NCBI GenBank assembly: GCA_036154315.1
Contig: JAYZLL010000035.1
Location: 3,934-67,933, forward strand
Source: Pseudomonadota bacterium
GTDB taxonomy: Bacteria; Pseudomonadota; Alphaproteobacteria; Rhodobacterales; Rhodobacteraceae
Reading direction: 5' to 3'
DNA length: 64,000 nucleotides
Shown in pieces: positions 2,563 to 30,439 of this stretch. A program made the translations under genes and the position numbers. Within the stretch, counting starts at the first letter, position 1. Each line of letters starts with the position of its first letter. The notes below the pieces were generated by a model that was given only the letters and a program-made list of their open reading frames with translations, ran no database searches and was not told the DNA's origin.

Positions 2563-4077
2563 ATGTCAGGGGGTTACACACGGCGCGCATTCGTATCGGG
2601 CGCTATGGCAGCGGTTGGGTCCGCGGCCATGGCCGAGGCCCCTTTGACCTCGATCCGACCGATGCCACGCGCCGATGCCGGGGTGGTGGTCCCGCCGCCA
2701 CGTCCGACGATCACCGTTCCGGCGGTCGACGATCTGGTCAAACAGGCCAACCTCAACGGCAAGATCGGCTTCGTCGTCGCAGATGCCCAGACCGGGCTGA
2801 TCCTCGAACAACGCAACGCCGCGGTCGCGATGCCGCCCGCGAGCGTCGCGAAATCCGTGACCGCACTCTATGCCTTCGACTCACTCGGCCTCGACCATGT
2901 GTTCGAAACCCGCCTGTTCGCCACAGGCGGCATCACCGATGGCAAGATTCAGGGCGACCTCATCCTCGCAGGTTCCGGCGATCCGACGCTCGACACCGAT
3001 GCGCTCGCTGGAATGGCGCAGAAGCTCAAGGATCTGGGCGTCACGGGGATCACGGGCGCCTATCAGGTCTACGGTGGTGCGCTGCCCTATGTGCGGTCGA
3101 TCGACCCGGGCCAGCCCGATCATCTGGGCTACAACCCGGCGGTCTCGGGCCTGAACCTCAATTTCAACCGCGTGCATTTCGAGTGGACCCGGTCGGGCGA
3201 GGGCTATTCGGTCGAGATGGACGCCCGCTCCGACCGCTACCGGCCCCGGGTGACGACCGCGCGGATGCAGGTCGTGGACAGGGACATTCCGGTCTACACC
3301 TATGCCAGCGACGCGGAGGCGGTCGATCAATGGACGGTGGCACGCGGCGCGCTGGGCAATGGCGGTTCGCGCTGGCTGCCGGTTCGTCGCCCCGACCTAT
3401 ATGCGGGCGAGGTGTTTCAGGCGCTCGCGCGGGTACACGGGATCACCCTGCCGAAAGCAGCAGCGCGCGCAGAGGCGCCCACCGGCACCGCCATCGTCAG
3501 CCACCGGTCGCAGGACCTGTCGACCATCGTGCGCGACATGCTGCTATATTCCACGAACATCACTGCCGAAGCGGTGGGGCTTGCCGCCAGTCGCGCGCGC
3601 GGGATCGAGGTGACCAACCTCGAGCAGTCCGGCGCTGCGATGAGCGACTGGATGCGCGAGGCGATGGGGGCGACCGCCGCGGCCTTCACCGACCATTCCG
3701 GCCTGTCCGACACCGGCGTCGTCTCGACGCAGGATATGGTCAGGATGTTGCAGGTCTCCAAACCGGGCGGGGTTCTGCACCAGCACCTCAAACAGGTTCC
3801 GGTGCGTGACGACGAGGGGCAGTACAACGAACATGCCGCCCACACGATCATGGCCAAGACCGGCACGCTGAACTTCGTCTCTACGCTTTCTGGCTATGTC
3901 ACGGCGGCCGATGGAAACGTGCTGTGTTTCGCGATCTTCACCAACGACATGGAGCGCCGGGCCGCCCTGACCAGAGCCGAACGCGAGCGTCCCGATGGCG
4001 GGCGTGGTTGGGCCAGCCGGTCGCGCTGGCTCCAGCAACAGCTCATCAGCCGGTGGATGACCGTCTACGGCGTCTGA
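2563..4077 (+). CDS. dacB: D-alanyl-D-alanine carboxypeptidase/endopeptidase, PBP4 (peptidase S13) family
   Basis: Twin-arginine-like signal MSGGYTRRAFVSGAMAAVGSAAMA from the ATG at 2563. SxxK active site in PPASVAKSVTALYA. Length and KTGT-type region (MAKTGTLNFVS) fit PBP4. Confidence 0.85.
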   Translation: MSGGYTRRAFVSGAMAAVGSAAMAEAPLTSIRPMPRADAGVVVPPPRPTITVPAVDDLVKQANLNGKIGFVVADAQTGLILEQRNAAVAMPPASVAKSVTALYAFDSLGLDHVFETRLFATGGITDGKIQGDLILAGSGDPTLDTDALAGMAQKLKDLGVTGITGAYQVYGGALPYVRSIDPGQPDHLGYNPAVSGLNLNFNRVHFEWTRSGEGYSVEMDARSDRYRPRVTTARMQVVDRDIPVYTYASDAEAVDQWTVARGALGNGGSRWLPVRRPDLYAGEVFQALARVHGITLPKAAARAEAPTGTAIVSHRSQDLSTIVRDMLLYSTNITAEAVGLAASRARGIEVTNLEQSGAAMSDWMREAMGATAAAFTDHSGLSDTGVVSTQDMVRMLQVSKPGGVLHQHLKQVPVRDDEGQYNEHAAHTIMAKTGTLNFVSTLSGYVTAADGNVLCFAIFTNDMERRAALTRAERERPDGGRGWASRSRWLQQQLISRWMTVYGV

Positions 4078-6053: not shown

Positions 6054-7631
6054 ATGTCTGATCTGCGTGACGTCGCGATGAACTCGAAAGCCTGGCCCTT
6101 CGAAGAGGCGCGCCGGCTGGCGAAACGCTATGAAAAACAGCCCCCCGAAAAGGGTTACGTGCTGTTCGAGACGGGCTATGGCCCCTCCGGTCTGCCCCAT
6201 ATCGGCACCTTCGGCGAGGTGGCGCGCACCACGATGATCCGCCATGCGTTCGAGGTCATCAGCGACATCCCGACGCGGCTTTTCTGCTTCTCCGACGACA
6301 TGGACGGCATGCGCAAGGTGCCCGAGAACGTCCCGAACCAAGAGATGCTGCGCGAACACCTGCAGCAGCCGCTCACCGTCGTGCCGGACCCGTTCGAGGA
6401 ATTCGAAAGCTTCGGCCACCACAACAACGCCATGCTGCGCCGGTTCCTCGACACATTCGGGTTCGAGTATGAGTTCTATTCCGCGACCGAATTCTACAAG
6501 TCGGGCGCCTTCGACGAGACGCTTCTCGCGGCCGCGAAGAATTACGACAAGCTGATGGAAATCATGCTGAAATCCCTGCGGGAGGAGCGTCAGCAGACCT
6601 ATTCGATCTTCCTGCCGATCCACCCTGAGACGGGGCGGGTGCTTTATGTCCCGCTGAAAGAGGTGAACGCCGAAGACGGTACGATCACCTTCGACGACGA
6701 GGACGGCAAGGAATGGACGCTGCCCGTGACGGGCGGCAACGTGAAACTTCAGTGGAAACCCGACTTTGGCGCCCGCTGGGCCGCGCTCGACGTTGATTTC
6801 GAGATGTATGGCAAGGACCACTCGTCCAACACGCCGATCTACGACGGCATCTGCCGTGCGCTGGGTGGGAAAGCGCCGGAGCACTTCGTCTATGAACTGT
6901 TCCTCGACGACAAGGGCGAGAAGATTTCCAAGTCCAAGGGCAACGGGCTGTCGATCGACGAATGGCTGACCTATGCCTCGACCGAGTCGCTGTCCTATTT
7001 CATGTATCAAAAGCCCAAGACCGCGAAGCGCATGTTCTTCGACGTGATCCCGCGCGCAATGGACGAATATCACCAGCAGCTTGCGGCCTATCCGAACCAG
7101 ACGCCCGAACAGCAGCTGGCGAACCCGGTCTACCACATCCATTCCGGCAACGTGCCGGAGAGCAAGATGGTGGTGAACTACTCGATGCTCCTGAACCTCG
7201 CGTCGGTGGCTTCGGCCCAGGACAAATCGGTGCTCTGGGGCTTCATCAGGAACTACGCACCGGACGCGACGCCCGAGACGCACCCGGACCTCGACGCCGC
7301 TGCGGGCTATGCGATCAAGTATTACGAGGATTTCGTGGCCCCCACCAAATCCTACCGCCTGCCCACCGATCTGGAGCGTGAGGCGCTGACCGATTTGCGC
7401 GGCCGTCTGGCGGCGTGGGACGGCGGCAACGATGCCGAGGGTCTGCAGGGCGAGGTTTTTGCCTGTGGTCGCGACCGGTTCGAGCAGATGCGCGATTGGT
7501 TCAAGGCGCTCTATCAGGTGTTGCTCGGCGCCGATCAGGGCCCGCGCTTCGGCTCGTTCGTGGCGCTCTACGGCGTGGACGAAACGGTTGCGCTGATCGA
7601 CAAGGCGCTGGCGGGCGATCTCGTCGCCTGA
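6054..7631 (+). CDS. lysK: lysine--tRNA ligase, class I
   Basis: 525 aa. Class I signature [13 protein letters not shown] (HIGH-like) and KISKSKGNG (KMSKS). Class I LysRS is typical of alphaproteobacteria. Confidence 0.92.
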
Positions 7632-8633: not shown

Positions 8634-8759
8634 TCATGCGATCCACAGCCTAATGAACCACGCCACCGTGCCGATGGCGGCCACGCTCAGCCCGTAAATC
8701 GCCACGAACCACAACAGCTGCTTGCCCTTGCGGCGCGGTTTTTCCGGCACGTCCGACAT
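8634..8759 (-). CDS. 41-aa membrane microprotein, DUF2474-like, trailing gene of the bd-oxidase operon
   Basis: Below the ORF-track size cutoff. ATG (8757-8759) overlaps the cydB stop (8759-8761) by 1 nt. Translation is MSDVPEKPRRKGKQLLWFVAIYGLSVAAIGTVAWFIRLWIA: a basic head plus one TM helix, as in DUF2474 proteins found after cioB. Confidence 0.65.
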   Translation of the reverse strand: MSDVPEKPRRKGKQLLWFVAIYGLSVAAIGTVAWFIRLWIA

Positions 8760-9790
8760 CAGTGATACCCGGTGTCCACGTCGATTTTGCCGCGAAACAC
8801 GTAATAGGCATAAGCGGTGTAGGCGAGGATGATCGGGATCAGAACACCTGCGCCCACCAGCATGAAGATCTGGCTCGCGCGCGGGGCGGCGGCCTCGTAG
8901 ATCGTGACCTCGGTGGGGATGATGTAGGGATACATCGTCAGGCCCAGCCCGATGAAGCTGACGATGAACAGCCCGAGCGCGGACAGGAACGGCCAGTGGT
9001 CATGACGGTGAACGTGGAGCGCGCGGAACATGAACCACGCAAGGCCCAGCACCAAGGCGGCGACCGCGACGGCCCAGAGCACGTGCCAGCCCTCGAACCA
9101 GCGGGCGAAATAGCCGTCCTGTAGCATCGGCGACCAGATCGACACGGACCCGATAAAGATCACCGTCGCGATCCCCAGAGGCCATGCGCGGGTGCGCATC
9201 CGCTCCTGCAGCGGGCCCGAGGTCTTCATGACCAGCCATGTGGCACCCAAGAGCATGTAGCCGACGACCACCGCGATCCCGACGAAGATCGAGAACGGGG
9301 TGAGCCAGTCCCACCAGCCGCCCGCATAGGCACGCTGCGCTTCGTTGACTTCGACACCCTGCAAGAGCGCGCCGAGCGCCACGCCCTGCGCGAAAGCGGC
9401 AAGCGTCGAGCCAGCGATGAAGGCATAGTCCCAGATCCAGCGGCCGGTCTTGGCCTTCCACCGAAACTCGAATGCCACACCTCGGAATACCAGCGCCAGA
9501 AGCATGGCGATGAGCGGTGCGTAAAGCGCGGGCAGGGCGATGGAATAGGCCAGCGGGAAAGCTGCGAACAGCCCGCCGCCGCCCATCACCAGCCAAGTCT
9601 CGTTGCCGTCCCAAACGGGCGCGACCGAGTTCATCATGACGTCGCGGTCTTCCTTTTCGCGTTCGGCCGCGAACAGGATGCCGATGCCGAGGTCGAAGCC
9701 GTCCAGCACCACGTAGACCAGCACCGCGAAGGCGATGATGAAGGCCCAGATCGTCGTCAGGTCGAGGGAGATGTCGGATACGATGGGCAT
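8759..9790 (-). CDS. cydB: cytochrome bd-type ubiquinol oxidase subunit II
   Basis: 343-aa polytopic protein with typical CydB N-terminus (DLTTIWAFIIAFAVLVYVVLDGFDLGIG). Immediately follows cydA. Confidence 0.92.
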   Translation of the reverse strand: MPIVSDISLDLTTIWAFIIAFAVLVYVVLDGFDLGIGILFAAEREKEDRDVMMNSVAPVWDGNETWLVMGGGGLFAAFPLAYSIALPALYAPLIAMLLALVFRGVAFEFRWKAKTGRWIWDYAFIAGSTLAAFAQGVALGALLQGVEVNEAQRAYAGGWWDWLTPFSIFVGIAVVVGYMLLGATWLVMKTSGPLQERMRTRAWPLGIATVIFIGSVSIWSPMLQDGYFARWFEGWHVLWAVAVAALVLGLAWFMFRALHVHRHDHWPFLSALGLFIVSFIGLGLTMYPYIIPTEVTIYEAAAPRASQIFMLVGAGVLIPIILAYTAYAYYVFRGKIDVDTGYH

Positions 9791-9791
9791 G

Positions 9792-11219
9792 TTATTTTCC
9801 TGCCTTCGGGTCTTCGGGGCCGGGCGTGATGCCCGCCGTCCGGGTGGGGCCTTCGACCGTTTCCTTATAGGACGGTTCGTGATCGGCGGGCGGGCGCGAC
9901 ATCAGCCGCAGGATATAGAACGTGCCTGCACCGAACACCGCGAAATAGACAACGATAAACGCGACGAGCGATGCGCCCACGGCGGCGGCGTCAAGCGGGG
10001 CGGCAGAGTCGTAGGTGCGCAACAGGCCGTAGACCGTATAGGGCTGGCGCCCGACCTCGGTCGTGATCCAGCCCGCGAGCACCGCGATCAGACCGGACGG
10101 CGCCATGAGAACGGCGGCCCGGTGCAGCCACGGCGTGGTGAAAAGCCGCCCTTTCCAGCGCGCCCAGAGCGACCATAGCCCGATGCCGAGCATCGCAAAG
10201 CCGAGCGCCACCATGATCCGGAAGGCCCAGAACACGATGCCCACCGGGGGCTGTTCGTCATCGGGAATGGTGTCCAGCCCGGCGAGCGGGGCGTTCAGGT
10301 CATGCTTGAGGATGAGCGAAGACAGTTTCGGGATGCCGATGGCGTAATCCAGCCGCTGCTCTTTGTCGTTCGGTATGCCGAACAGATAAAGCGGCGCGCC
10401 GTCCGGGTGGCTCTCATAATGCCCCTCCATCGCCATGACCTTGGCGGGCTGGTGTTCGAGCGTGTTGAGCCCGTGCATGTCGCCCAAGAAAATCTGAATG
10501 GGCGCGACGATCGCGGCCATCCACATCGCCATCGAAAACATCTGCTTGGTCGCCGCACTCGACTTTTCGCCCCGGCGACGCCGCCGGAGCAGGTGCCACG
10601 CGCCGACCCCGCCCACGATGAAGGCGGTCGTGAGATAGGCGGCCGTCACCGTATGGGCGAGGCGATAGGGGAAGGACGGGTTGAAGATGATCTGCCAGAA
10701 ATCCTCCGGCACGAATTGCTGCGTGTCCGGGTCGATGGAAAAGCCCGCAGGCGTGTGCATCCACGAGTTCACCGACAGGATCCAGAAGGCCGACAGGAAG
10801 GTGCCGAACGCCACCATCGCGGTCGCCGACATATGCAGGCCGGGGCCGACCCGTTCGCGACCGAAGAGCATGATGCCGAGAAAGCCCGCTTCGAGGAAGA
10901 AAGCCGACAGAACCTCATAGGCCATCGGCGCGCCGATGACCGGGCCCGCCTTGTCCGAGAAGACCGACCAGTTGGTCCCGAACTGGTACGACATCACGAT
11001 CCCCGACACGACGCCCATCGCGAAAGCGAGCGCGAAGATCTTGACCCAGTAGCGGAACAGATCGAGGTACTTCTGCTTCTTCGTGTAAAGCCACAGCGCG
11101 TTTACCACGGCGAGGAAGGACGCAAGCCCGATGGTGAAAGCCGGAAACAGGAAGTGGAAGGACACCGTGAAAGCGAATTGTATCCGGGCCAGCAAGACGG
11201 CGTCGAATGATCCCAGCAT
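9792..11219 (-). CDS. cydA: cytochrome bd-type ubiquinol oxidase subunit I (short Q-loop, CIO-like)
   Basis: LARIQFAFTVSFHFLFPAFTIGLA, GWITTEVGRQPY. ATG at 11217-11219 is preceded by GAGGAG. About 475 aa, shorter than long-Q-loop CydA, suggesting the cyanide-insensitive subtype. Confidence 0.9.
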   Translation of the reverse strand: MLGSFDAVLLARIQFAFTVSFHFLFPAFTIGLASFLAVVNALWLYTKKQKYLDLFRYWVKIFALAFAMGVVSGIVMSYQFGTNWSVFSDKAGPVIGAPMAYEVLSAFFLEAGFLGIMLFGRERVGPGLHMSATAMVAFGTFLSAFWILSVNSWMHTPAGFSIDPDTQQFVPEDFWQIIFNPSFPYRLAHTVTAAYLTTAFIVGGVGAWHLLRRRRRGEKSSAATKQMFSMAMWMAAIVAPIQIFLGDMHGLNTLEHQPAKVMAMEGHYESHPDGAPLYLFGIPNDKEQRLDYAIGIPKLSSLILKHDLNAPLAGLDTIPDDEQPPVGIVFWAFRIMVALGFAMLGIGLWSLWARWKGRLFTTPWLHRAAVLMAPSGLIAVLAGWITTEVGRQPYTVYGLLRTYDSAAPLDAAAVGASLVAFIVVYFAVFGAGTFYILRLMSRPPADHEPSYKETVEGPTRTAGITPGPEDPKAGK

Positions 11220-11475
11220 ATCGGGCTCCTCGTTTCCTGCGTCACGATCGGTCGCGACGCACAAATATTAATCTGAAACAGAGGTTAATCACAGGGCAAG
11301 CCGCGCGCGACCGGACAATTCGTCGCCACCGATCACGTCCCTGTAATCGCGCTGTAATTCCAACCGACACAGCTCGCTGGCGTTCTGAATGGCCTGCAGC
11401 GACCGCGAAAAGCGTCTCTGCGATGAAACCATTGACCGAAGGTCACCGTACCTTCTGTATCAGGGAGTACATCAG

Positions 11476-11892
11476 ATGAAACAGATATTACTCGTCCTAG
11501 CGATCACCCTTGCCACCCTTCTGCCGCGCGTCATGACGGCGCAGACTTCGGACGAAGGCGCCATTCAGGGGGTCATCTCAAGCCAGCTTGATGCCTTCAT
11601 CGCCGAAGATGTGGACGCGGCCTGGACCTATGCCTCGCCGATGATCCAAGGCATGTTTCGCACGCCCCAGATGTTCGGACGCATGGTCGAAAACGGCTAC
11701 CCGATGGTGTGGAAACCGACCGCAACCCAGTTTCTCGAACTGCGCGATGTGGACGGCGCGCTCTGGCAAAAGGTGATCCTGCGTGACGGCGCCGGGGTCT
11801 ACCACGTGGTCGAATACAAGATGCTCGCGACGGACGACGGCTGGCTGATCGACGGCGTGCAATTGATCCGCGAAGCGGGTGTCGGGGCCTGA
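11476..11892 (+). CDS. DUF4864-like (NTF2-fold) secreted protein
   Basis: AGGGAG RBS at 11462-11467, ATG at 11476, signal MKQILLVLAITLATLLPRVMTAQ. Family assignment is from memory of similar Rhodobacterales proteins and is not verified. Confidence 0.6.
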   Translation: MKQILLVLAITLATLLPRVMTAQTSDEGAIQGVISSQLDAFIAEDVDAAWTYASPMIQGMFRTPQMFGRMVENGYPMVWKPTATQFLELRDVDGALWQKVILRDGAGVYHVVEYKMLATDDGWLIDGVQLIREAGVGA

Positions 11893-11896
11893 AAGC

Positions 11897-11922
11897 TTAA
11901 AAAAGTGTTAACAAAAGGTTAA
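11897..11922. promoter_or_regulatory. triple TTAA half-site array (two overlapping TTAA-N7-TTAAC CtrA-type boxes)
   Basis: gcTTAAaaaagtgTTAAcaaaaggTTAACacg. Half-sites at 11897, 11908 and 11919 with exact 11-bp phasing. Lies 43 nt upstream of the ATG at 11965. Confidence 0.55.
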
Positions 11923-11964
11923 CACGCGCCCGCTGCGCCCCCATACTCGTCTCAGGAGGCGGTG

Positions 11965-12378
11965 ATGGGCGAAGTGGAACTGGCAGCGATTCTGTGCAGC
12001 CTCATCCTTGGGGGCGAGGCCGAGGTGCGCCATCCGTATAGCGCCGCCTATGATCTCCATTATATCATCGTCGATTGCGAGACCGAGGATACGGTCTATG
12101 AGGTCGGGCTCGACAAACGCTCCTCCACCGACAGTCTGCATCAGGCGCTCTTCGCCGCGCAGCTCACCGGCAAGACGCCGGGCATCGTCATGATCGACAC
12201 CAACGGGCGCGAAGATCAGTATGAATATCAGGTGCGCAGTACCGCACAGAGCGCCGGGGTCGAGTACCGCGTCTACGATCGCGACTTCCTGATCCGTTGG
12301 CAGATGACCGATTATCTGCGCAACTACCCCGTGCCGCAGGCCTCCGGCGAAGACCTGACGCTCCTCATCCTCGACTGA
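11965..12378 (+). CDS. hypothetical 137-aa protein (no family recognised)
   Basis: AGGAGG RBS at 11954-11959, ATG at 11965 (GTG at 11962 also possible). Good GC3 bias and no signal peptide. Confidence 0.6.
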   Translation: MGEVELAAILCSLILGGEAEVRHPYSAAYDLHYIIVDCETEDTVYEVGLDKRSSTDSLHQALFAAQLTGKTPGIVMIDTNGREDQYEYQVRSTAQSAGVEYRVYDRDFLIRWQMTDYLRNYPVPQASGEDLTLLILD

Positions 12379-12399
12379 TCTCACCTCTTCTCTGTTTGA

Positions 12400-12522
12400 G
12401 AAAACCTCAGGGGGAGCGGGTGTTTTCCCCGAAAACATCCGCCGGGGGACTGGTCCCCCGACCGCGCCGACCCGCCACAGGCGGGGCGGTGCTCACCCTG
12501 TGCGCGGGGCTTGCCCCGCGCG
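12400..12522. repeat. REP-like hairpin cluster (second copy of the 4092-4149 element plus a GC hairpin)
   Basis: GAAAACCTCAGGGGG leader, GGGGGAC-TG-GTCCCCC (12445-12460), then GCGCGGGG-CTTG-CCCCGCGC (12503-12522) with only a weak T tract after it. Confidence 0.5.
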
Positions 12523-12631
12523 CCGCTTTCAAACCTTGCCGCCCGGAGCAGCGCACGGTGCCCTCAGCCCCATTTAACGCCTGAGGCTTACCCCTGACCG
12601 CCAAAGTTGCGCCTTGCGGAAAGGGATACTC

Positions 12632-14910
12632 ATGAGCACCCCCCTCGATCTGATGCCGTCGCCCTTCGTCGACGGGCTGGACCAGTGGTCCAGCGAGAAC
12701 GGAACCTCCGGCTCCGCGACCTATAACGGCGCGGCCAATGCGGCCTTCGTGCCGTCGGATCAGGATTTCGGGGGGTGTCTGGAGCTTCTCAAGACCGAGA
12801 GCACGCAGAAATTGCGCTGGACCGGGCAGACCCCGATTCTGCCGGGCACCTATCTGCGCGTCAGCGCCAAGGTGAAAGCGATGAGCGGCAGTTTCCCTTC
12901 CGTGCGCGTCGCGGGCTACGCGATGGACGGGTCGGACAGCCACGTTACGGGGCTCGATGAAACCGCGCCCTCGGTCGCGCTCGACACCTATGGTGAGGTC
13001 GTGACCGTGACGGGCATCGTGGCGGCGGGCAACCGCGACGGGGTCGACATGATCTGGGGCGCGGCGCCGGAGTATGGCCATTTCGGCATCGACCTGATCG
13101 GCGCGTCCGGGGGCATCGTGCGTGTCGACGACATCGAGATCAAGGATGTGACCGGCAGCTTCCTGCGCGACATCCTCGATGTGGTCGATGTGCGCGACTA
13201 CGGCGCGGTGGGCAACGGCTCGACCGACGACCGTGCGGCCTTCGCCGCTGCCGATGCCGATGCCGACGGGCGCACGGTGGTGATCCCGGACGGGAATTAT
13301 CACATCGGCTCCTCGCTCACGATCCAGAGCAAAGTGCGCTTCGACGGCACGGTGAACATGCCTGCCGCCGCCCATCTGGCGCTCCTCAGAAACTTCGACC
13401 TCGAGACCTATATCGACGCGTTCGGGGACGAGGTGACGGGATTCAAGAAGGGGTTTCAGGCCCTCATGAACTACTCCGATCATGACGGCTTCGACCTTGC
13501 CGGGCGCACGATCAACCTCTGGGGGCCGATCGACATGCAGACGCCCTCAACACCACCGACACCTTCCTGATCCGCCGCGTCATCCGCAACGGCCAGTTCT
13601 ACGCGCAGGACGATCCGGCGTGGGATCCCGACGTTGTCTCGTCGCAGGGCAGCTACAACCCGAACAACCCGCTCATGCTGACCGGGCTCACCAATGCGAG
13701 CCAGATCCAGCCGGGCAGCCAGATCACCGGCAACGGTGTCGGGCGCGAGGTCTATGTGAAATCGGTGAATGTGGGGGCGGCCAGCTGCGAGATCAGCCAA
13801 CCGCTTTATGGCCCCAACTCGACCCAGAGCTACACCTTCACGCGCTACAAATACATCCTCGACTTCATGGGGTTCGAGAACCTGCGGCGCCTGACCTTCT
13901 CGGAAGTCGAGTTCCAGATGAACGGCTATTGCAACGGGGTTCTGTTGTCGAAAGAGGGCGAGAACTACCAGTTCAAGGACTGCTTCTTCGTCAAACCCAA
14001 ACACAAGGGCATCACCTCGGCGGGCCGGGCGTGTCAGGATCTGCACCTCGAACAGTGCCAGTGGATTTCCAACGAGCAAAGCACCGATGCAGACCAGCGC
14101 GTGAGCGTCGGGTTCAACGTCAACGCCAACGATACCAAGATCCGCGATTGCCGGTTTCAGCGCATGGGGCTTTCGGCGATCATCAACGGCACCGGGCACA
14201 TGGTCACCGGCAACCACTTCTTTCAGGGCGACGACAGCTCGAACGCGCCGCGTGTCGCGGGCCTCATCTTCACGCGGGAGGCCTGCGTGGCCACCGTCAC
14301 CGGCAACTACATCGACAACTGTTCGATCGAATGGACCAACGAGCACGACTCCAAGCCCGATTTCTCGAACGAGTTCGGGTTCGGCGGCCTGACGATCACG
14401 GGCAACATCTTCTATTGCTCGAACGCGATCACCAGCTTCCGGTTCCTGCGGGTGAAACCCTATGGCGACGACCATTTTCTGTCCGGCCTGCAGGTGAACG
14501 AGAACACGTTCTACTGCGCCACCAGCACGATCGAACGGGTCGAGGAATGGGACACGACCCATGCGGCCCCCGATTACTGGCGCTTCCGCAACATCAACTT
14601 CGAGCGCAACAACTTCAACGGCATCACCCAGCGCACGATCAGCCCGGTGTGTCTGGAGTTCAATCAGGCGTCGAACGCGACCACATGGACGCTCGACCCC
14701 TCCGACTATCTGCCGTTCGGTGGCAACGCGCGCACGGTGAGCGCGGTGGTGGCCGAGGGCGAGATTAAGAACGCCTCCAACGCCCGCGTCGACTCGCTGC
14801 CTTATGTGAACGTGAACGCGGGATCGGGGAACAAATACGTCCAACTGGTCTGGCCGCAGGCCTGTCGCGGGACGGTCCACACCACGATCCGGGTCGACAA
14901 GCCGCTCTGA
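12632..14910 (+). pseudogene. tailspike/pectate-lyase-superfamily beta-helix protein with N-terminal CBM-like domain; apparent single-base frameshift near 13541
   Basis: ORFs 12614-13570 (frame 2) and 13675-14910 (frame 1) read as one protein. Frame 1 is already open and GC3-rich from 13486 (..ALNTTDTFLIRRVIRNGQFYAQDDPAWDPD..), while frame 2 loses GC3 bias after 13543 and stops at 13568-13570. VRDYGAVGNGSTDDRAAF is the Pectate_lyase_3/tailspike N-cap motif. Repeated NxxIxxC/GN rungs (TGNHFFQG, TGNYIDNC, TGNIFYC, ERNNFNG) indicate a right-handed beta-helix. Confidence 0.6.
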
Positions 14911-28571: not shown

Positions 28572-29576
28572 ATGGCCACCATTCGGGCTAACGACCGCGA
28601 ATTCGCGAAAGCTACGGGATCGAACATCAACTCGTCGGGGGACGAGTCGGATTTCGATCTGCCGCTCGACGACATGACCGATCTGGTCATCTACACGCCG
28701 CTTCTGGATTTCGACCCCTATCTGTTCGAGCTGGGCGAAACCCACACGCTGACGTGGAACGACAGCGACGGTTCGCACACGATGTATAACGCCGAAGTCG
28801 TGCGCTCGGACCTTAAGTGGAACACCGCGAACCAAGGTGCCGTGGTCTTCGAAGGCACGGACACGGACGGCAACGCCACACAGGTGCTCTGGACCCCCGA
28901 CCTCGACGTGCATCAGTGGTATGCGAACACGCAGGCCAGCGGCCGTCACCCGATGTTTTACAACACGGACCAGCATCCCTCGACCTATGGTTACGTCTGC
29001 TTTGCGGGCGAGACGCGGATCGAAACCGATCGCGGTCTCGTCCGGATCGACGAGATTCAGCCCGGCGACCGGGTCGCGACGCTGGATCATGGCTATCAGA
29101 CGGTGCGCTGGGTCGGTCACTCGCGTGCCCGCGCCACGGGCGATGCGGCGCCGATCCGGTTCGAGGCGGGCGCGATGGGCCAGCACGGCAGCCTGCGGCT
29201 GTCACCCAATCACCGCGTCGTTCTGCGCGATGCCAAGATGAAACAGGCGCTGGGTCAGGCTCAGGTCATGGTCGCGGCCAAGGCGCTTGCCGGTCGTCCG
29301 GGCATTTCGCGCGAAGAGGGTGGGTTCGTCGAGTATTACAACATCCTCTTCGACAAGCATGAGGTGATCTTTGCCGAAGGTCTGGCCTGCGAGTCGCTGT
29401 ATCTCGGGGAGCAGACCCGCAAGGTGCTGGGCGCGGCCGACAGCGATCCGCGTGCGCAGTACCCGGATCTCGAGACCGTCAACGGCATCGAACACAAGCG
29501 TACCGCACGTCCGTTCTTGGATGTGGGCCATGCCCGCGCCTATTTCGACGCGCGTGACCTGTGCGAAGCCGCCTGA
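28572..29576 (+). CDS. Hint (Hedgehog/intein-like, bacterial BIL-type) domain protein
   Basis: 334 aa. The C-terminal domain starts with the nucleophile Cys in YVCFAGETRIETDRGLVRIDEIQPGDRVATLDHGYQTVRWVG ... SPNHRVV ... HEVIFAEGLACESL. The N-terminal 140 aa are acidic with no signal peptide. Confidence 0.8.
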   Translation: MATIRANDREFAKATGSNINSSGDESDFDLPLDDMTDLVIYTPLLDFDPYLFELGETHTLTWNDSDGSHTMYNAEVVRSDLKWNTANQGAVVFEGTDTDGNATQVLWTPDLDVHQWYANTQASGRHPMFYNTDQHPSTYGYVCFAGETRIETDRGLVRIDEIQPGDRVATLDHGYQTVRWVGHSRARATGDAAPIRFEAGAMGQHGSLRLSPNHRVVLRDAKMKQALGQAQVMVAAKALAGRPGISREEGGFVEYYNILFDKHEVIFAEGLACESLYLGEQTRKVLGAADSDPRAQYPDLETVNGIEHKRTARPFLDVGHARAYFDARDLCEAA

Positions 29577-29590
29577 ACTTTCCGGAACCC

Positions 29591-29636
29591 CCAAAAAAGA
29601 AACGGTGACGCTCGGGAGGAGGTGAGCGCCACCGTT
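29591..29636 (-). terminator. Rho-independent terminator of the CcsR-like array (also usable from the + strand)
   Basis: 13-bp stem (29601-29613/29624-29636). On the minus strand it is followed by UUUCUUUUUUGG. On the plus strand TTCTTT follows, so it can also terminate the convergent Hint gene. Confidence 0.75.
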
Positions 29637-29672
29637 CTTTAGGCAATCGGCCTCAGGGAGGAGGAAGAGGCC
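29591..29672 (-). ncRNA. CcsR/cuckoo-type sRNA unit 4 (ends in the terminator)
   Basis: Hairpins 29649-29672 (GGCCTC/GAGGCC) and 29601-29636. Motif at 29656 and 29614. U tract at the 3-prime end on the minus strand. Confidence 0.7.
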
Positions 29673-29713
29673 TTTTGCTTCGTCCGGGGTTGCCCCCGTA
29701 TGGATGCCCGTCA

Positions 29714-29773
29714 GCCTCAGGGAGGAGGAAGAGGCGTTCAGGCTACGGTCACCCCAGGGAGGAGGAGAGGGGC
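29714..29773 (-). ncRNA. CcsR/cuckoo-type sRNA unit 3
   Basis: Hairpins 29751-29773 (CCCC/GGGG plus a terminal G-U on the minus strand) and 29714-29735 (GCCTC/GAGGC). Motif at 29757 and 29720. Confidence 0.65.
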
Positions 29774-29788
29774 TTCCGATCTTTTGGC

Positions 29789-29853
29789 CGGTGGCGCTCG
29801 GGAGGAGGTGAGCGCCACCGACTATGCAGAACTTCCCGGGAGGAGGTGGGAAG
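29789..29853 (-). ncRNA. CcsR/cuckoo-type sRNA unit 2
   Basis: Hairpins 29832-29853 (CTTCCC/GGGAAG) and 29789-29820 (CGGTGGCGCTC/GAGCGCCACCG). Motif at 29838 and 29800. Confidence 0.7.
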
Positions 29854-29876
29854 ATCCGTATTGGGGACCCGGGGTC

Positions 29877-29940
29877 ACGTCTGGGAGGAGGTAGACGCTG
29901 TCCGGGTCATCGAGGAAACCTCAGGGAGGAGGTAGAGGTT
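29877..29940 (-). ncRNA. CcsR/cuckoo-type sRNA unit 1 (two CCUCCUCCC-loop hairpins)
   Basis: Hairpins 29917-29940 (AACCTC/GAGGTT) and 29877-29898 (CGTCT/AGACG). Loop motif (as + strand GGGAGGAGG) at 29924 and 29883. Unit boundaries are approximate. Confidence 0.7.
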
Positions 29941-29951
29941 CCCCGAAACGC

Positions 29952-30311: not shown

Positions 30312-30439
30312 TGCATACGTAATGCTGACCTTGTTTGTTAACCCTAGGTAAACGTTCCAAAGTTCCGGCGCAGATCGCGCTCGGCCCCTTGAGAAACAGG
30401 GCGGAATGGGCATGTATGCCCCGACTGGAAAAGGAGAAA

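Follow-up and report, generated by a model that had tools for sequence, protein, structure and literature searches.

What does a phased row of three TTAA half-sites do in the spacer between two genes of a GC-rich rhodobacteral genome, which gene does it serve, and which protein reads it? The array occupies positions 11897..11923 (plus strand) of a 64,000-nt stretch of contig JAYZLL010000035.1, from a metagenome-assembled genome (MAG) of the Rhodobacteraceae (assembly GCA_036154315.1), and we refer to this whole stretch as the window. Our computational analysis points to an operator built of several half-sites for the cell-cycle regulator CtrA, which probably activates a single downstream gene encoding a small, conserved orphan protein of 137 amino acids that occurs across marine bacteria of the Roseobacter group. 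The elements on which this prediction is built are the following.

11897..11900, plus strand: half-site 1, distal (TTAA), about -57 from the predicted transcription start; identical in Maritimibacter alkaliphilus (locus L001)
11908..11912, plus strand: half-site 2 (TTAAC), about -46; its TTAA is invariant in an alignment of eight genomes
11919..11924, plus strand: half-site 3 (TTAACA), the putative -35 hexamer; its TTAA is invariant in the same alignment
11942..11947, plus strand: -10-like hexamer CATACT; relatives have cTATnn, 19-20 nt past the last TTAA
11954..11959, plus strand: Shine-Dalgarno sequence AGGAGG, read from the sequence, with the predicted transcription start just upstream
11965..12378, plus strand: gene of the conserved 137-amino-acid orphan protein, predicted to be controlled by the array

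The array, its conservation and its target

In the window the array reads gcTTAAaaaagtgTTAAcaaaaggTTAACacg, or TTAA(a)-N7-TTAA(c)-N7-TTAA(c), with TTAA at 11897, 11908 and 11919 and a period of 11 bp. It begins 4-5 nt after the stop codon of the upstream open reading frame (ORF; TGA at 11890-11892) and ends 43 nt before the ATG at 11965, and its A-tract spacers, AAAAAGTG and CAAAAGG, are in phase with the half-sites. The proximal box can also be written as TTAAC-N6-TTAAC. A scan of both strands of the 64 kb finds TTAA-N7-TTAA exactly twice, both times within the array and with the middle half-site in common; 100 dinucleotide-preserving shuffles gave a mean of 0.01 matches, and none of them (0/100) held two or more. 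TTAA itself occurs 20 times in the whole window (GC content 64.7%), three of these in the array, and when mismatches are allowed the next-best site is TTAACCCTAGGTAAAC at 30338. These scans bear out a preliminary description of the locus, which had pointed to the doubled TTAA-N7-TTAA with its common middle half-site, to the rarity of TTAA in a GC-rich window and to the lack of any other such site, the nearest being that at 30338; its distances of 5 nt from the stop codon and 43 nt to the ATG are also correct.

We assembled 80 genomic loci that encode relatives of the 137-amino-acid protein (cited by number where needed, as for L001), 79 of which are usable for upstream analysis. Within 150 nt upstream of the gene, 47 of the 79 carry a paired TTAA-N6-8-TTAA, and in 27 the row comprises three to five half-sites. 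The runs in the 47 array loci consist of 2-5 TTAA(C) elements with a period of 10-12 bp, are spread over about 20 named Rhodobacterales genera and have gaps of N7 (49 cases), N6 (26) or N8 (3). The arrays are repeats of (G)TTAAC(C)TTTTG or of the reverse complement, CAAAAGGTTAAC, and half-site 1 is less conserved across genera than half-sites 2 and 3. M. alkaliphilus HTCC2654 has the array of the window, with the same half-sites and the same spacers. Upstream of the gene TTAA is found 13.4 times per kb; the flanks (602 kb) have 0.39 per kb, and intergenic DNA elsewhere (147 segments, 24 kb) has about 1.5 per kb. The TTAA pairs within those 147 segments come from one promoter of the tailspike gene tspA, discussed below, and from three upstream regions of the same 137-amino-acid gene that had passed the exclusion filter.

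The array is kept beside this gene despite unrelated neighbours, among them groESL, uvrD, pyruvate carboxylase, proC and lysS; lactate dehydrogenase, thymidine kinase and inorganic pyrophosphatase genes are further neighbours of orthologs. Because the array is present in neighbourhoods that are otherwise unrelated, it travels with the gene. The comparison argues strongly that the array is the phylogenetic footprint of a periodic protein-binding site, and by comparative criteria it is functional.

Among the 120 matches listed by a metagenome scan with the pattern GTTAAC-N4/5-GTTAAC-N4/5-GTTAAC, aimed at other genes with triple arrays, most are low-GC tandem repeats and two (L086 and L131) are loci of the 137-amino-acid gene; the list does not delineate a regulon. 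One metagenome contig (L160, 41% G+C) carries at 3574-3601 a perfect GTTAACAAAAG three times over, its unit identical to that of the window, with uvrA on one side and on the other a gene that is trmFO-like by eye, judged on its first ~70 residues; the contig encodes no relative of the 137-amino-acid protein.

A scan of 11300-12700 for the sigma-70 consensus gives TTAACA-17 nt-CATACT as its sole match, at 9/12 positions, and since half-site 3 falls at the hexamer of this only match, we read half-site 3 as the -35. A class of eight genomes has the array in one common orientation; besides the window it takes in Maritimibacter, Vannielia, four Oceaniglobus and one MAG. Throughout this class the two proximal TTAA, the 'AT' of the cTATnn element and the ATG are invariant. 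The spacer from the last TTAA to cTATnn keeps its length in these genomes (19-20 nt) but not its sequence, and the last TTAA lies 39-42 nt from the ATG. A CtrA-type site at the -35 is thus found in the window by consensus and comparison only, relative to a transcription start predicted at about 11953-11955, some 7 nt past CATACT. With that start the leader of the mRNA would be very short.

The preliminary description had read the array as two overlapping CtrA-type boxes ahead of an 'unknown gene pair' at 11965-14910, placed as for a class II activator site or a -35 overlap, and had named conservation in orthologous loci as a check. The sequence, the phasing, the -35 geometry (half-site 3 being the -35 hexamer of the promoter scan) and the conservation, whether counted as paired sites or as rows of at least three half-sites, all favour that reading; the gene pair does not stand. 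Its two downstream ORFs are one gene, separated from the 137-amino-acid gene by a 253-nt spacer, and this tspA-like gene follows the 137-amino-acid gene in 7 of the 80 loci (8/81 with the window), while the array is kept elsewhere. Given an adjacency limited to 8/81 and an array retained in unrelated neighbourhoods, the target of the array is, on this comparative evidence, the 137-amino-acid gene alone.

Which protein reads the array

CtrA, a response regulator of the OmpR/PhoB family, is expected to bind direct TTAA repeats head-to-tail, with one helical turn from repeat to repeat. In its half-site, its 7-nt gap and its 3' C the array agrees with a classical CtrA box, and by the sequence definition of that box (TTAA direct repeats with a gap of 7 nt, 6 nt being tolerated) the array contains two overlapping perfect sites.

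Sites of this form have been validated by experiment in other Rhodobacterales. The CtrA sites of gafA and ctrA in Rhodobacter capsulatus have been validated by electrophoretic mobility shift assay and mutagenesis; at the gafA promoter, CtrA-D51E binds TTAAC-N6-GTAAC, a site conserved in 14 species, and mutation of either half-site cripples production of the gene transfer agent (GTA) (PMC6363796). In Cereibacter sphaeroides, mutagenesis found CtrA sites with a 7- or 6-nt gap to be functional near a weak -10 (PMC6180460), which fits the mixture of N7 and N6 in the orthologous arrays, and in the osp promoter TAA-N7-TTAA stands 54 bp from the ATG, on its upstream side (PMC9430884). CtrA activates from sites at the -35 (PMC6180460; PMC9430884) and represses from half-sites over the -10 (summarised in PMC6180460); because the window has a half-site at the -35, as in CtrA-activated promoters, activation is predicted. 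CtrA is present in most alphaproteobacteria, Rhodobacterales included (PMC2877005; PMC9430884). Furthermore, GTA production is CtrA-dependent in R. capsulatus, whose late GTA loci have putative CtrA half-sites (PMC9638019); these fit the TTAAC elements that we find at tspA orthologs.

On balance, we consider it probable that CtrA activates the 137-amino-acid gene through the array, which would be its multi-half-site operator; we infer from these comparisons that the binding protein is CtrA, that its effect is activating and that transcription starts where predicted. In the mechanism that we propose, the three half-sites at about -57, -46 and -35, on one face of the helix, would hold a CtrA dimer, or a longer head-to-tail oligomer joined through the middle half-site, against RNA polymerase. 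This would allow class II activation from a sigma-70-type promoter, TTAACA-17-CATACT, and yield a short-leader mRNA starting near AGGAGG. The phased A-tracts of the spacers probably pre-bend the DNA, and arrays in which three to five half-sites are shared could accommodate a longer oligomer or alternative dimer registers.

Several observations weigh against CtrA control of this kind. The distance from the last half-site to the ATG varies from 4 to 85 nt across lineages (4-26 or 52-85 nt in lineages other than that of the window), and the -35 overlap is therefore limited to the window's clade and is not a trait of the whole family. The asymmetric unit TTAACCTTTTG is found in either orientation relative to the gene, and about 40% of orthologs have no array, some of them carrying an operator that resembles an NrdR box instead. 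A CtrA-like sequence upstream of a gene is also no guarantee of regulation, as the Ruegeria cckA gene illustrates (PMC3692519). Neither ctrA nor another response regulator gene was found among the annotated ORFs of the window, with about 32-58 kb viewed by eye only. Finally, two protein searches, one of them with a profile of a distant subfamily, looked for orthologs in species for which ctrA-mutant transcriptomes exist, and those of R. capsulatus, C. sphaeroides and Dinoroseobacter shibae are absent from the best 120 hits of either. By eye, the region from about 32 to 58 kb looks like a cluster of cell-division and cell-wall genes starting with mraZ.

The alternative that survives best is that a protein other than CtrA binds the (G)TTAAC repeats, be it the 137-amino-acid protein itself through autoregulation, a SciP-like factor, GafA or a lineage-specific regulator. 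An array that travels with its gene from context to context is what one would expect of an autoregulatory operator. Most half-sites, moreover, are part of a longer palindrome, GTTAAC, and are separated by an asymmetric A/T-tract spacer, a pattern more specific than the textbook CtrA consensus, and paired sites in the sampled flanks occur at the 137-amino-acid gene and at tspA only, the latter being a gene with GafA binding 50-100 bp upstream of its start codon in R. capsulatus (bioRxiv 10.64898/2026.07.19.739414). However, the predicted fold of the 137-amino-acid protein is compact alpha/beta, has no helix-turn-helix and carries conserved acidic residues suggestive of an enzyme, and a GafA motif of such form is not described in the literature consulted on GTA regulation (PMC9638019). 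CtrA is the more economical choice, since the CtrA site validated in Rhodobacterales is precisely TTAAC-N6-(T/G)TAAC, and we regard a different binding protein as unlikely, if worth keeping in mind.

It is distinctly unlikely that CtrA binds the array yet represses the gene, or merely times its expression; for lineages whose array abuts the ATG, repression is plausible. In L018, L030, L032, L062, L063 and L066, among others, the last half-site is 4-21 nt from the ATG, so close that it would overlap the -10 or the start, which is the geometry of CtrA repression in Caulobacter (summarised in PMC6180460), and a half-site placed on the -35 could occlude sigma-70. In the window's clade, however, a half-site at the -35 followed by a 17-bp spacer and a weak -10 is the geometry of a CtrA-activated promoter, and a poor -10 (CATACT) with a non-consensus -35 is a combination that typically needs an activator.

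We give very little weight to the idea that the array acts as a hairpin, whether an intrinsic terminator, another RNA structure or a structural DNA element, formed by pairing of the middle and right units (GTGTTAAC-loop-GTTAACAC). On the minus strand a terminator scan does flag a stem of 8 bp with a T-run behind it, and the array begins 5 nt past the stop codon of a DUF4864 gene. But this T-run is on the wrong strand, as no minus-strand gene reads into it, and what comes after the stem on the plus strand is GCGCCC; an intrinsic terminator, with a GC-rich hairpin and a T-run on the strand of the incoming gene, was therefore rejected. With z = -1.3 for the plus strand and z = -1.0 for the minus strand, the folding energy is not unusual; the stem is AT-rich, and a stem of this sort arises trivially wherever two GTTAAC palindromes are neighbours. 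Across genera, conservation lies in the half-sites and in their 10-11-bp phasing within arrays of 2-5 units and not in a stem-loop, and a search of the whole window against Rfam gave no match. Chance clustering of TTAA in an AT-rich spacer, in a genome whose intergenic DNA is indeed richer in TTAA than its coding DNA, is effectively refuted by the shuffle expectation of 0.01 and by the pairing of 47/79 upstream regions against near none elsewhere in intergenic DNA.

If CtrA does bind the array, this promoter would stand out, within the Roseobacter-group sequences sampled, as a predicted CtrA target of unusual clarity and conservation. In some of these bacteria CtrA sites are difficult to recognise: a search upstream of motility genes that depend on CtrA found none in Ruegeria or R. 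capsulatus (PMC3692519). An uncharacterised, clade-wide gene would be added to the CtrA regulon, and its three to five shared half-sites would offer a natural template for the study of cooperative CtrA binding. The multi-half-site architecture is uncommon and the target gene family is uncharacterised. Nothing is overturned by this result, which extends a known kind of regulation to a new gene family.

The 137-amino-acid protein and its genomic surroundings

The product of the predicted target gene has an identical counterpart, a hypothetical protein, in a 'Pseudomonadota bacterium' MAG, and its closest named relative is from Maritimibacter alkaliphilus HTCC2654 (85% identity). Homologs begin M-x-E-L/V, by which the start codon is set at 11965. 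Sequence and profile searches of Pfam, NCBIfam, PHROG and the PDB returned no match. The AlphaFold model is confident (predicted local distance difference test score 90.4) and describes a compact domain with the order alpha-beta-beta-beta-alpha-beta-alpha-beta-alpha, invariant acidic residues and no helix-turn-helix. A Foldseek search of the PDB with this model gave nothing below E 1e-3; the best geometric match is AF1548 (1y88; template modelling score 0.49), and several of the weak hits are restriction-endonuclease-like. A nuclease-like fold and a DNA-related enzymatic role may be considered as leads only. Osp, the single-domain response regulator that inhibits CckA, was rejected as an identity for the protein, which has no Response_reg match at E <= 1 and an order of elements that is not (beta-alpha)5.

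A second bacterial subfamily of about 150 amino acids has a C-terminal DDLP...CDL extension, and distant homologs occur in four Nitratiruptor phages (33-37% identity, E = 4e-8), where they lie in the early region by genes for Beta recombinase, SSB and a repressor (for example in NrS-3, L201 15057-15452). A search of plasmids for the 137-amino-acid protein found nothing.

Orthologs without the array, among them those of Aliiroseovarius and some Maritimibacter-like MAGs, carry a palindromic element of the type ACACAGGATATAGTGT, located 16-20 nt ahead of the ATG. Palindromes resembling NrdR boxes, such as ACACAGGATATAGTGT or CTACCATATATTGTGG, are found in L003, L004, L005, L020, L044, L049 and L079, 16-42 nt upstream, and such single boxes are about 29-fold enriched over flanks. 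The described NrdR operator consists of two 16-bp boxes (C4, A6, A8, T9, T11, G13) 15-16 bp apart (PMC13584703). Four loci (L003, L005, L020 and L049) have a second box 15-16 bp upstream, each imperfect with 1-2 core mismatches; imperfect pairs of this kind occur in 5 loci against about 0.9 expected from flanks. This imperfect pattern hints at a possible switch of regulator between lineages, from the array to an NrdR-like operator. Such an operator senses deoxynucleoside triphosphates and, if real here, would link the gene to the control of DNA precursors or replication.

A broader hypothesis, which we put forward only tentatively, would make the protein an unrecognised and widely conserved member of the Rhodobacterales CtrA regulon with a role in DNA metabolism connected to the cell cycle or to GTA biology, perhaps nuclease-like; its control would have passed to an NrdR-like operator in some lineages, and the arrays would be head-to-tail CtrA 'super-sites'. 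Were this so, polymerisation of CtrA head-to-tail on three to five half-sites would be a binding mode that has not been described for CtrA.

The surrounding genes were mapped from codon-position G+C and family searches, as follows.

6054-7631: lysS (class I)
8759-11264, minus strand: cydB and cydA
11389..11892, plus strand: DUF4864 gene, context only
12574..12578, plus strand: single TTAAC in the tspA promoter region, 54 nt before the tailspike ATG
12632..14910, plus strand: tspA-type GTA tailspike gene, split into ORFs 12614-13570 and 13675-14910
Downstream of 14910: PPK2 and MltB genes

The two ORFs that follow the 137-amino-acid gene correspond to a single ORF of about 763 amino acids, in one frame, in seven relatives. 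Alignment with M. alkaliphilus (L001) shows that one G is missing from the window at about 13540, where ATGCA-GACGCC stands in place of ATGCAGGACGCG, and restoring it gives a single window protein of 759 amino acids. In R. capsulatus, TspA (Rcc02623) is the detachable tailspike of the GTA, with 763 amino acids, an N-terminal carbohydrate-binding beta-sandwich (1-180) and a right-handed beta-helix from residue 181; it resembles a Streptomyces alpha-1,3-glucanase, with catalytic Asp505, His533 and Asp566, and its gene, with the upstream GafA binding mentioned above, adjoins lysS (bioRxiv 10.64898/2026.07.19.739414). In the tailspike family studied here, the Pfam pectate-lyase-like match starts at residue 189-191 and the best PDB sequence hit is the alpha-1,3-glucanase 5zru. 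D505, H533 and D566 stand at exactly the TspA positions in the 763-amino-acid ortholog L049, and the repaired window protein has the motifs NANDtk, GNHff and NYIDn, shifted by 4 residues. Furthermore, lysS lies upstream of the tspA region in the window and in L003, L005, L011, L020, L025, L044, L049 and L055. From the length, the start of the domain, the glucanase hit, the catalytic residues and the adjacency of lysS we conclude that 12632-14910 is, by these sequence features, a tspA ortholog, the frameshift in this MAG marking either a pseudogene or an error of assembly. An identity with the head-spike pair of RcGTA, ghsA/ghsB (rcc01079/rcc01080), was rejected, given the one 763-amino-acid ORF in relatives and the features that match TspA; rcc01080 has no homologs outside R. 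capsulatus (PMC5026251).

The tspA orthologs have a conserved, promoter-like upstream element of their own (window 12560-12631; L005 at ~4847, L020 at ~4873 and L049 at ~5125). It consists of TTAAC and, after it, TTGATA or TTGCTA, at a distance of about 55-180 nt from the ATG, and in three relatives the first part takes the form TTAAC-N6-TTAACC. The element may be a combined CtrA/GafA promoter. It is located in the region where GafA binds in R. capsulatus. The local annotation is thereby corrected to that of a GTA accessory locus, with its own TTAAC-containing promoter, beside the array. The lysS-tspA module beside the 137-amino-acid gene looks ancestral. A DUF4336 gene of about 240 amino acids lies between the 137-amino-acid gene and tspA in the closest relative (L001) and in L003, L011, L049 and L055; the window has no DUF4336 gene there and only the 253-nt spacer, which is GC-rich.

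Three further features of the window are recorded here. At 11266-11290, upstream of cydA (minus strand), stands a direct repeat TTAATC-N11-TTAATC (aataTTAATCtgaaacagaggTTAATCacagg), the spacing of which is unfit for CtrA; it could be the site of another regulator of the cytochrome bd oxidase. At 30337-30353, GTTAACCCTAGGTAAAC is a second candidate CtrA site; written as TTAAC-N6-GTAAAC, it has the same form as the CtrA sites validated in R. capsulatus. It is located 89 nt upstream of an mrp/apbC-like gene (ATG 30442; recognised by eye through a GKGGVGKST motif) and stands divergent from a small minus-strand ORF (ATG 30170) that is DUF1127-like by eye. Between a Hint-domain gene (28572-29576) and this small ORF, about nine short hairpins occupy 29600-29945, each with GGGAGGAGG in its loop (for example GGCCTCA-GGGAGGAGG-AAGAGGCC and GGTGGCGCTC-GGGAGGAGG-TGAGCGCCACC), with no Rfam match; the set looks like a 'sponge' RNA with multiple Shine-Dalgarno-like or GGA loops, or like a repeated element.

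Comparison with known systems

Direct repeats with a 10-11-bp period, the proximal one abutting or replacing the -35 and the whole bound head-to-tail by oligomerising winged-helix domains, are familiar from the pho boxes and from the OmpR sites F1-F3. Their half-site sequence differs from that of the array, and the likeness is one of mechanism only.

Within the Rhodobacterales, the fla2 and osp promoters of C. sphaeroides have CtrA boxes just upstream of a weak -10 and leaders of 12-33 nt (PMC6180460; PMC9430884), much like the layout predicted here. The targets there are flagellar genes or the CckA inhibitor, whereas the 137-amino-acid protein is not Osp. With the gafA and ctrA sites of R. 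capsulatus (TTAAC-N6-GTAAC / GTAAC-N6-TTAAC), a species of the same taxonomic order, the array shares the TTAAC half-site and the 11-bp period; at gafA, too, the site is conserved from species to species and keeps its distance from the start codon (PMC6363796). The array differs in that each of those sites is a pair of half-sites of which one is degenerate (GTAAC), and in that the gafA site lies at the transcription start and not at the -35.

The class II CtrA promoters of Caulobacter crescentus, with TTAA-N7-TTAAC at the -35, share with the array the half-sites, the 7-nt gap and a proximal half-site over the putative -35 (PMC6180460). At Caulobacter pilA, extra upstream CtrA sites modulate the promoter (PMC11264516). 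The gene predicted to be controlled by the window array differs from the Caulobacter targets in being an orphan. The architecture differs as well: in Caulobacter, pilA included, the sites are separate full sites, whereas here three half-sites, and up to five in relatives, make up one continuous, in-phase array with shared half-sites.

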